The notes under the pieces were generated by a model. It had not been told where the DNA came from and searched no databases. It saw nothing but the letters and a program-made list of their open reading frames with translations. Source: Clostridia bacterium (GTDB lineage: Bacteria; Bacillota; Clostridia; TANB77; CAG-465). From it: a stretch of 64,000 bases of DNA. The position numbers and the translations under genes were made by a program. Location of the stretch: contig JAQSXK010000002.1 in assembly GCA_029256705.1 (NCBI GenBank), forward strand, positions 55,542-119,541, written 5' to 3'. This document shows, piece after piece, positions 24,121 through 26,961 of this stretch; positions within the stretch are counted from its first letter, which is position 1; every line of letters begins with the position of its first letter.

Positions 24121-26961
24121 TTATATAACTACATTAATTACTCTTCCTTTTACAACAATAACCTTTTTTACTTCTTTATCTAGTGTGTATTGTTTTAATC
24201 TTTCATCTTGTCTAACTATTTTTTCAATTTCTATTTCATTAAAGTTATTATCTACAGTTACTTTAAATCTTACAGTTCCGTTAATTAAAACAGCCATTTC
24301 TATTTCTTCTGCTACCATTTTGTTTTCATCATATTCTGGCCAAGGAGTTGTAAAAATATAATTTTCTAATTGTAGTAATTCCCATAGTTCTTCGGTTGTA
24401 TGAGGAGCTACTGGATTTAAAACTTGCAAGAATGGTTTTATATACTTTATATCTATTTTTTCTTGTTTATATAACAAATTAACATATGACATCATACATG
24501 CAATAGCAGTATTATATTTCATTTCTTCGTAATCACAAGTTACCTTTTTAATCATTATGTTCATTTCTCTATCTAATTCTTTAGAATCTAATTTTTCGTT
24601 AGTTACCATATCTTTAAGTCTCATAACTCTATCTAAGAATTTTTTAGCACCCTTTACACCATTTTCAGACCAAGGAGCACTTTGTGAATATTCACCAATA
24701 AACAATATATACGTTCTTAAAGTATCTGCACCATACTCTTTTATTATATCATCAGGATTTACAACATTACCTTTAGATTTAGACATTTTATCTCCATCTG
24801 GTCCAAGTATTAATCCTTGTGTTGTTCTTTTAGCATATGGTTCTTTTGTAGGTACAACACCTATATCATATAAAAATCTATGCCAAAATCTTGAATAAAT
24901 TAAATGTCTTGTTACATGTTCCATTCCACCATTGTACCAATCAACTGGTAACCAATATTTTAATTTATCTGCTGACGCTAAACTATCATTGTTTTTAGGG
25001 TCAATATACCTTAAATAGTACCAACTAGAGCCAGCCCATTGTGGCATTGTATCTGTTTCTCTCTTTGCACTACCTCCACATTTTGGGCATGTAGTGTTTA
25101 CCCATGAATCAATTTTAGCTAGTGGAGATTCACCGTCCTCACCTGGCATGAAATCTTTAATTTCTGGTAATGTAAGTGGTAAATCTTTTTCATTCATTGG
25201 AACTAATCCACATTTATCACATTTTACTATTGGTACAGGCTCTCCCCAGTATCTTTGCCTTGCAAAAGCCCAATCTTTCATATGGTAATTAGTTTTTGGT
25301 GTCCCTAATTTATTTTTAGCTAAGAATTCGTTAATTTTAACAGTTGCCTCTTTAACATTTAGTCCATTTAAAAATTCAGAGTTTATGAATATACCATCAC
25401 CTAAGTATGGTCTTGCTCCATTTACACAAATATCAAATACTAATTTATGATGTTCTTTATTAATAGTTTCAAACATTTCCTCTTTAGAAAGCCAAACATT
25501 ATCTACTAACTTCTTCTCATCTTCACTTATTTCTACCTGTTTATCACTAGCAAGTTCTACAAATACATCTTTTTGATGAACCACTTTATTTACACCTTTA
25601 TGGGATGCACAAAAATGATCAAAATGTTCAAATGGTATATAACTTACGTTTTTAATATCTATATAACCTGTTTCTTCTTTTACTTCTCTTACAGCTGTTT
25701 CTAATGCAGTTTCTCCTGGTTCAATTCCACCTGTAATTAAATTTTTCCAATCATAATCTTTCCACATAGAACAAATATATTTTTCTTCGCTCCAATGTTT
25801 TACAACAATAAGTACACCATTTCCTTCTTTGTTTGGCATACCTTCTTTAGGCGGATTAGTAGGATCTATGTAATCCATAGCTATTACTGGTTTAATATCT
25901 ATATTAAATTTTTTAGCAAAATCAAAATCTCTTTCATCATGAGCAGGAACTGCCATAATAGCTCCTGTTCCATATCCAAGCATAACGTAATCTGCAACCA
26001 GCAAAGCAATCTTCTCATTTGTTACAGGATTGATACAACTAATACCTTCTACTTTAACTCCTGTCTTTTCTTTAACAAGTTTTGTTCTTTCAAATTCAGA
26101 TTTTTCCGCTGCTTTTTTTCTATATTCAACTATTTCATCAAAGTTAGTAATTTTATCTTTAAGTTCATCTAATAATCTATGTTCTGGAGCAATTGCCATA
26201 TATGTAACACCAAAAATTGTATCTGGTCTTGTTGTATATATTTTTAATTTTTTATCTGTTCCTTCAATGCCGAAATCTACTTCTGCCCCATATGATCTAC
26301 CAATCCAATTTTCCTGCTCTATTTTAACTCTATCTGAAAAGTCTAAATTACCTAATTCATCTAGTAATTTATCTGCATAGTCTGTTATTTTAAGCATCCA
26401 AACTTCTTTCTCTTTTTGGATAATTTGGCTATCACATCTATCACATATTCCACCTTGAGATTCTTCATTTGCAAGTATTACTCTACATTTTGGGCAATAA
26501 TTTACATATGTCTTATCCTTATATGCCATTCCATGCTCAAATAATTTTAAAAATATCCATTGTGTCCATTTGAAATATTCTGGAGTTGTTGTATCTACTA
26601 CTCTATCCCAATCAAATGAAAGTCCAAAAGATTTCAATTGCTTAGTAAATATTTCAATGTTGTTATCTGTTACAGTTCTTGGATGTATACCCGTTTTCAT
26701 TGCATAATTTTCTGTAGGAAGTCCAAATGCATCAAAACCAATAGGAAATAACACATTATATCCTTTCATTCTTTTCATTCTAGATATAACTTCCATACCC
26801 ATAAAAGCTCTAGCGTGTCCTACATGTAGTCCTGCACCAGAAGGATATGGAAATTCTATTAATGAATAAAACTTCTTCTTACTTGTGTCATCTACTGCAC
26901 AAAAACATTTCTCTTTTTCCCAAACATCTTGCCACTTCTTATCTATTTTTTTATCATACAT
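24121..26961 (-). CDS. leuS: leucyl-tRNA synthetase with an in-frame Nudix-domain insertion
   Basis: HIGH (HVGHA), CP1 editing domain ([22 protein letters not shown]), KMSKS (DKMSKSKGN), anticodon-binding C-terminus; 946 aa versus about 805-860 aa for typical bacterial LeuS because of an inserted segment with a Nudix box. Confidence 0.95.
   Translation of the reverse strand: [946 protein letters not shown]

Follow-up and report, generated by a model that had tools for sequence, protein, structure and literature searches.

Why would a leucyl-tRNA synthetase (LeuRS) carry, inside its proofreading domain, a second domain with the hallmarks of a phosphohydrolase? The question is raised by the leuS gene of a Clostridia bacterium (contig JAQSXK010000002.1, assembly GCA_029256705.1), located in a stretch of 64,000 nucleotides that was analysed as a whole and is referred to below as the window. 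We found that this gene encodes a Nudix domain inserted in frame into the CP1 editing domain of LeuRS, that the insert is under purifying selection, and that it belongs to a family of Nudix domains that recur both as insertions in aminoacyl-tRNA synthetases and as free-standing proteins, some of which are encoded next to synthetase genes. Hydrolysis of nucleotide by-products of the synthetase is a possible, if tentative, answer to the question.

The Nudix insert and its place in LeuRS

The leuS gene, which lies on the minus strand, comprises the following parts (all coordinates are those of the window):

24121..26961, minus strand: leuS, a single uninterrupted open reading frame (946 aa plus stop) for the Nudix-bearing leucyl-tRNA synthetase, with matches to TIGR00396 and to the Pfam families tRNA-synt_1, tRNA-synt_1_2, NUDIX and Anticodon_1
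25879..26961, minus strand: LeuRS residues 1-361, comprising the first half of the catalytic domain, the zinc module and the first three quarters of CP1; aligns with residues 8-364 of Thermus thermophilus LeuRS and with positions 1-146 of the 185 positions of PF13603
25408..25878, minus strand: Nudix insert, residues 362-518 (157 aa)
25663..25731, minus strand: Nudix box, residues 411-433, fitting GX5EX7REUXEEXGU and intact in 23 of 23 sequences of the close clade
25585..25614, minus strand: family-specific motif, residues 450-459, consensus F[YF]AAHKxVNR, with the invariant Lys455 (K in 75 and N in 74 of 75 sequences)
24124..25407, minus strand: LeuRS residues 519-946, comprising the last quarter of CP1, the second half of the catalytic domain, and the anticodon-binding and C-terminal domains; aligns with residues 375-876 of T. 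thermophilus LeuRS

The NCBIfam model of bacterial LeuRS (TIGR00396, leuS_bact) matches the protein with 946.4 bits against a cut-off of 548.4, in two stretches with the insert between them. The homology to canonical bacterial LeuRS (T. thermophilus 1H3N/2BYT and Escherichia coli 4AQ7/4ARC) covers the full length (phmmer E-values of 1e-201 and 6e-169) and includes a common domain order and common HIGH, KMSKS, T-rich and HDxRD motifs. In the window protein, these motifs are HVGH (residues 46-49, 26815-26826), KMSKS (residues 725-729, 24775-24789), TTRPDT, the T-rich editing motif (residues 243-248, 26218-26235), and HDERD with the conserved editing Asp (residues 341-345, 25927-25941). With both synthetic and editing motifs present, the LeuRS part looks fully functional as judged from its sequence, and the editing motifs are retained in 64-69 of 72 Nudix-bearing LeuRS.

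The insertion point is a surface loop within CP1, approximately three quarters along the domain, rather than a position after CP1, where the earlier note had placed it. This assignment follows from two observations: the CP1 profile PF13603 (E-value 2.4e-57) is broken at position 146 of 185, and the crystallized constructs of the isolated E. coli CP1 domain (2ajg and 4k47) run 45-55 residues beyond the insertion point. The alignment with T. thermophilus LeuRS, the editing domain of which we take to span approximately residues 224-417, stops at residue 364 before the insert and resumes at residue 375 after it; thus, where the canonical enzyme has a CP1 loop of about 10 residues (364-375), the window protein has the 157-aa Nudix domain. 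Alignment with insert-less relatives shifts the previously proposed limits of the insert (residues 361-516, 25414-25881) to the residues 362-518 listed above.

The claim that leuS encodes an in-frame Nudix domain stands: in addition to the continuity of the 946-aa reading frame, the Pfam profile NUDIX (PF00293) matches residues 384-507 of the whole protein (E-value 1.3e-14, 54.7 bits) and the excised insert (E-value 6.1e-16, 59.1 bits) well above its cut-off of 21.1 bits. The Nudix box, found where it had been indicated, reads G411-GIEPG-E417-TALETAV-R425 E426-V-K-E429 E430-T-G432-Y433, which is an exact match to the GX5EX7REUXEEXGU pattern, and E426, E429 and E430 occupy invariant or near-invariant columns of the family. 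The insert is a complete domain that folds on its own and has the alpha/beta/alpha sandwich of the Nudix fold in a minimal version of 150 aa, without an added RNA-binding element; the AlphaFold model of the full-length protein is of poor global confidence (mean predicted local distance difference test score, pLDDT, 69; predicted template modelling score, pTM, 0.45). Outside the box, the family conserves Arg19, Lys94, Asn97, Arg98, Glu121 and Trp129, among which Glu121, by likeness to other Nudix enzymes, may be an additional metal ligand. Free minimal Nudix proteins (the uncharacterised 2azw of Enterococcus faecalis, NudH/RppH, NudB, NudI, CT771, Aq_158, Ndx1 and Rv2985) are at most 20% identical to the insert, and the insert family differs from them in having its own signature (Arg19 in the N-terminal strand, F[YF]AAHKxVNR, E121 and W129) and in being tied to aminoacyl-tRNA synthetase genes.

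Selection on the insert and its losses

The presence of the insert is sporadic among close LeuRS relatives and its site is constant, a pattern superficially like that of homing elements, which raises the question of whether it is a selfish element akin to inteins, neutral junk, a sequencing error or a chimera produced in assembly. To our minds such an origin is hardly credible. The window protein was aligned with its 22 closest insert-bearing LeuRS, which are 64-91% identical to it, and with seven insert-less LeuRS. Among the 23 close homologues, the mean pairwise identity of the insert is 45% (minimum 18%) versus 74% in the flanks, yet every one of them has an intact Nudix box; when all 181 same-site copies are considered, 155 (86%) have the strict box. 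Comparison of the window with the near-identical locus L001 of a metagenome-assembled genome (MAG; JAEWPS010000002.1, 'Bacillota bacterium OH_SBrB_108') showed 13 synonymous and two non-synonymous differences in the insert, with a ratio of non-synonymous to synonymous substitution rates (dN/dS) of 0.03, which is as low as that of the catalytic core (0.05-0.12). The insert is thus under purifying selection, and the metal-binding and catalytic Glu and Arg residues of the Nudix box are kept.

The low dN/dS, together with a box that remains intact despite the divergence of the insert, excludes an artefact or a junk insertion. Furthermore, different projects have recovered the insert in hundreds of independent assemblies, and its base composition matches that of the gene around it (GC 0.28-0.31 within the insert). 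The two outcomes that would have undone the original observation, an ordinary LeuRS linker without a Nudix fold or an assembly error, are therefore not upheld, given the PF00293 match, the 22 other LeuRS and the dN/dS value. A recent foreign insertion is ruled out by the matching base composition and the low dN/dS. The insert starts with M-D-Y and ends with R-P followed by Y, with no Cys, Ser or Thr at the +1 position and no His-Asn; these boundary residues and a Nudix rather than a Hint fold rule out an intein or homing element.

The insert-less LeuRS closest to the window protein are 801-808 aa long and have a loop of approximately 10-25 residues at the site. In one insert-less relative, P0036, the first 13 residues of the insert are kept (AMDSTDMTNSPVE) and are joined directly to the last six (VNGDRP against VNGARP). 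The junction is the scar of a clean internal deletion and not an unoccupied homing site, and the loops of other insert-less proteins also resemble the ends of the insert. Because close relatives have deleted it, the Nudix domain is an accessory rather than an essential part of the aminoacylation machinery. In a neighbour-joining tree of the LeuRS flanks, which has short internal branches and no bootstrap values and is to be read qualitatively, insert-bearing and insert-less proteins and three types of insert are interleaved; given this tree, purely vertical inheritance of the insert is a poor fit. Taken as a whole, we hold the structural and evolutionary statements on the insert to be close to certain.

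Distribution of the family and neighbourhoods of its free members

The earlier note had suggested a search for the taxa that carry the insertion. When one genome per GTDB species was scanned with the alignment of the insert, at least 244 species genomes were found to encode a relative. Hidden Markov models for the N-terminal part of LeuRS, the Nudix domain and the C-terminal part of LeuRS match in this order, at the same site, in approximately 72 of the best 80 loci; by record label, about 43 of these 80 loci belong to Patescibacteria, that is, the candidate phyla radiation (CPR), and about 20 to uncultured Bacillota, the rest having other labels or none. When 1.84 billion cluster representatives were searched exhaustively with a profile, 377 matches were obtained at E <= 1e-10, and the top 150 were mapped: about two thirds are LeuRS fusions or fragments, at least one is a fusion with prolyl-tRNA synthetase (ProRS), and a few multidomain matches are unassigned. 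About 25 matches are free-standing proteins of 154-200 aa that contain the whole domain including the N-terminal strand. A word-indexed protein search with a 176-aa insert query produced one weak match and missed all 22 homologues found by the full-length query; its negative outcome is unreliable and reflects the limited sensitivity of a short query, not rarity of the domain.

The site found in the window is one of several. Domains of this Nudix family also occur close to LeuRS positions 206-238, on the N-terminal boundary of CP1 or a little way into it, in some proteins as tandem pairs, and, in four proteins, in the zinc-module region at about position 625. Two proteins, P0122 and P0123, contain three Nudix domains each, and in P0140 the site of the window protein is occupied by a tandem pair (the representatives with Nudix domains at other LeuRS positions are P0122, P0123, P0125, P0128, P0134, P0140, P0142, P0148 and P0271). 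At the CP1-start site, the box of the second copy is often degenerate (GQT...A.AE). Beyond LeuRS, an archaeal-type ProRS of 643 aa (P0254, L081 2906-4837) bears the Nudix domain between its anticodon-binding and C-terminal domains, and a second Nudix-bearing ProRS that is 67% identical to P0254 is encoded on another contig (L093 2762-4693); the Nudix boxes of these ProRS inserts are degenerate in part, with KE or RK in place of RE. In a nearest-neighbour comparison, free copies and those from the inserted sites designated A, B and C are intermixed, from which it follows that the domain has moved repeatedly between the free and the inserted state.

Two further kinds of LeuRS variation were noticed in the same survey. 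Some Clostridia MAGs (L053 5605-6504; also L056 and L069) encode a stand-alone protein of 290-311 aa that consists of a truncated CP1-like piece, a Nudix domain and the next LeuRS segment; it has a degenerate editing motif, AHNQEH instead of AHDxRD, adjoins prfA and a Ham1-family gene, and looks like a duplicated piece of a Nudix-bearing LeuRS. In many CPR LeuRS (L022, L023, L037, L049, L054 and L067; P0147, P0153 and P0219), the C-terminal half contains a further insertion of about 120-200 aa close to its position 67; others contain an insertion of 120-180 aa at around position 235, and not all of the latter are Nudix domains.

The genes of ten free-standing family members were sampled for their neighbourhoods, and five of the ten adjoin aminoacyl-tRNA synthetase genes. 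P0171 precedes a Nudix-bearing leuS by 2 nt, and P0176 precedes an insert-less leuS by 3 nt; P0182 lies directly upstream of a ThrRS-like gene (tRNA_SAD domain), P0190, with RE changed to RK in its box, one gene upstream of the Nudix-bearing proS of L093, and P0236 between argS and the gene for an isoleucyl-tRNA synthetase (IleRS). P0258 follows the gene for a FemAB aminoacyl-tRNA-dependent transferase, P0205 abuts fpg with a gap of 4 nt, P0203 and P0227 are without a synthetase neighbour, and the contigs of P0201 are too short to show neighbours. The occurrence of a separate gene beside an insert-less leuS in one genome and of a fusion elsewhere is a Rosetta-stone pattern, and it speaks for aminoacyl-tRNA synthetases and this Nudix family being functionally linked. 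The IleRS encoded downstream of argS and P0236 (L094 5094-8498) itself contains an insert of another kind, a histidine-phosphatase domain (His_Phos_1, residues 523-675).

As for the surroundings of leuS in the window, its start lies 20 nt downstream of a gene for a dGTPase-like phosphohydrolase with HD and HD_assoc domains, which overlaps a gene of the diacylglycerol kinase family (region 26981-29007, minus strand); the three genes appear to be co-transcribed. No T-box or other leader was detected upstream of leuS, one tRNA being the sole Rfam match in the window, and the window contains no second leuS and no second Nudix domain of the synthetase-linked family. Farther away, the window encodes a 2456-aa non-ribosomal peptide synthetase (35099-42466, minus strand) with two condensation, two adenylation, carrier and terminal reductase (NAD_binding_4) domains, and, after this gene, a 7TM histidine kinase (33269-35095).

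Possible functions and their significance

By sequence or fold, the insert belongs to no characterised Nudix subfamily. Its best score with a curated NCBIfam model is 37.7 bits, to the dihydroneopterin triphosphate/dATP pyrophosphatase NudB (NF006961, cut-off 103), and it scores 27.8 bits with the RppH/NudH models (PRK00714, cut-off 118; the best free member, P0176, reaches 39.8 bits) and 21.1 bits with the MutT 8-oxo-dGTPase model (TIGR00586, cut-off 97.9). The top Foldseek match is NudB, with 18% identity, and the structural neighbours comprise NudI, Rv2985 (a diadenosine polyphosphatase), Ndx1 (Ap6A), CT771 and Aq_158 (diadenosine tetraphosphate, Ap4A), DIPP/DDP1, NudB, NUDT15 and MutT1. 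A sequence profile search of the PDB was led by the mRNA-decapping Nudix proteins AvrM14 and Dcp2, by NudB and by Ap4A hydrolases. The PADLOC defence models gave only a marginal match confined to the Nudix box (PDC-S07, E-value 0.0098 for the insert and 1.8e-4 for P0176); with no significant match to these models, a role as an anti-phage defence protein was rejected.

Judging by its residues, the insert is probably catalytically active. Association with synthetases and weak fold similarity point, tentatively, to a pyrophosphohydrolase of dinucleoside or nucleoside polyphosphates that would clear adenylate-derived by-products such as Ap4A. Under this proposal, the synthetase would make by-products of the Ap4A, Ap3A, Ap4N or p4A type when the aminoacyl-adenylate reacts with ATP or another nucleotide, the Nudix insert would hydrolyse them, and the fusion would place the hydrolase at the source in 1:1 stoichiometry. 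The conserved basic and aromatic residues (R19, K94, N97, R98 and W129) would fit a polyphosphate-nucleotide substrate. Insertion at several unrelated positions suggests coupling by proximity or stoichiometry rather than by precise geometry, which mildly favours a diffusible small molecule as the substrate. Synthetases are known to form Ap3-5N and related adenylylated polyphosphates through nucleotide attack on the aminoacyl-adenylate (PMC7705103), and compounds of the Ap4A type are known to be hydrolysed by Nudix enzymes, among others (PMC10148737). The proposed logic is thus that of known Ap4A turnover, in which a dedicated hydrolase (ApaH, YqeK or a Nudix enzyme such as NudH or NUDT2) removes a product of the synthetases (PMC7705103, PMC10148737), with the difference that producer and hydrolase are separate proteins in the known systems and would be one polypeptide here.

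Several observations weigh against removal of Ap4A-type by-products. The insert reaches no curated subfamily cut-off and its structural neighbours, all at 20% identity or less, have many specificities. Some family members have a degenerate box, with RE changed to AE or RK, or E changed to Q. The window protein has G380 (25822-25824) where 73 of 75 family sequences have Arg (Arg19) and K459 (25585-25587) where 72 of 75 have Arg (Arg98); in the subclade formed by the window protein, P0002-P0005 and P0007, the former near-invariant Arg is replaced by Gly or Glu and the latter by Lys, substitutions that may reflect altered substrate binding. Repeated loss shows that the domain is dispensable, and several free members adjoin genes of nucleotide sanitation or DNA repair (fpg, Ham1, dUTPase and UDG), not of synthetases. 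LeuRS is not known as a leading Ap4A producer, and ArgRS, encoded next to one of the free members, is not known to make Ap4A without tRNA.

The same neighbourhoods bear on a rival explanation, namely that the domain has a general house-cleaning role, as an NTP pyrophosphohydrolase of the MutT/NudI/NudB kind that would dispose of damaged or non-canonical nucleotides; on this view, fusion with an enzyme that is both abundant and essential secures its expression in small genomes and has no mechanistic connection to aminoacylation. Besides the sanitation and repair genes just named, thymidylate kinase and PRPP synthetase genes are found next to free members; NudB, NudI, NUDT15 and MutT1 are among the fold neighbours, and the domain is often lost without replacement. 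Nevertheless, neutral hitch-hiking leaves unexplained both the near-constancy of aminoacyl-tRNA synthetases as the fusion partner and the location of half of the ten sampled free genes beside synthetase genes, and the scores with the MutT, NudB and NudI models are far below the cut-offs. We regard this explanation as doubtful.

It also seems unlikely that the substrate is the tRNA bound to the synthetase, with the Nudix domain serving as a repair or decapping module. In the manner of RppH, such a module would take a cap or triphosphate off the 5' end, or free the acceptor end of a pyrophosphate or of an ADP-ribose-type adduct. This possibility is brought up by the free members, the best curated similarity of which is to RppH/NudH (for P0176, nearly full length with an E-value of 3.9e-10), and by the decapping enzymes AvrM14 and Dcp2 at the top of the PDB profile search. 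The partners (LeuRS, ProRS, ThrRS-like, ArgRS/IleRS and FemAB) are diverse proteins that bind the tRNA acceptor end, the insertion sites in LeuRS (CP1, the CP1 hinge and the zinc module) all surround the path of that end, and the IleRS next to P0236 carries another phosphohydrolase insert. However, all scores are far below the family cut-offs, the similarity to RppH does not discriminate between the two substrates because RppH/NudH hydrolyses ApnA as well, and the minimal domain has no extra RNA-binding element. Moreover, action that depends on geometry is at odds with several unrelated insertion sites, including one in ProRS that is far from the acceptor end.

In a broader form, the family could act on whatever substrate is held by the synthetase and so provide a previously unknown built-in step of quality control or repair in aminoacylation, which we consider quite unlikely. 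Such a step would rid a tRNA end of a pyrophosphate, a cap or an ADP-ribose-type adduct, for instance reversing a toxin-installed pyrophosphorylation of the 3'-CCA, or, alternatively, would destroy a non-cognate or toxic adenylate analogue. The IleRS with the histidine-phosphatase insert would fit a theme of phosphohydrolase modules on class I synthetases in reduced genomes. On chemical grounds, mis-activated adenylates are less likely substrates than by-products: Nudix enzymes normally act on a nucleoside-diphosphate-X linkage, and an aminoacyl-AMP is an acyl-phosphate.

The position of the insert suggests one more alternative. It sits in the mobile CP1, the position of which governs the switch between aminoacylation and editing, so that a non-catalytic or weakly catalytic Nudix domain might serve as a sensor that tunes LeuRS activity or editing to Ap4A, (p)ppGpp or ADP-ribose. 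The loss of box residues in a minority of members, including the free P0190 and the ProRS inserts, and the loss of the near-invariant Arg19 in the window clade are compatible with such a role. We consider it very unlikely: the box is complete throughout the window clade and strict in most same-site copies, a pattern typical of an enzyme. Hydrolysis of Ap4A-type by-products thus remains, tentatively, our leading reading.

Searches of the literature on LeuRS and other aminoacyl-tRNA synthetases with Nudix domains, including CPR and Ap4A contexts, found no description of a Nudix domain within a synthetase. LeuRS and the Nudix fold are known; what is new is the architecture, the synthetase-associated Nudix family and its repeated insertion. 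A known analogue is the IleRS with a GNAT insert (ileS_w_GNAT, NF040702, an NCBI exception model), likewise a class Ia synthetase with an extra enzymatic domain. It differs in both the synthetase and the inserted enzyme, and the window protein scores 68 bits with this model against a cut-off of 1999, through the shared class I core. The practical consequence for annotation is that Nudix-bearing LeuRS are demoted to a generic name, 'class I tRNA ligase family protein', in the NCBI pipeline.

Aminoacyl-tRNA synthetases rank with the most thoroughly studied enzymes, and domains appended to them have repeatedly revealed new biology. In the present case, the proofreading domain of LeuRS houses a second, probably catalytic domain, with evidence from fusions and neighbourhoods in at least 244 species-level genomes, mostly of the candidate phyla radiation and uncultured Bacillota. 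If the substrate is a tRNA or an adenylate, the domain would represent a new proofreading or repair activity. If the substrates are Ap4A-type nucleotides, these proteins would be the first to unite producer and hydrolase in one polypeptide, which would bear on the question of whether such molecules are signals or waste.

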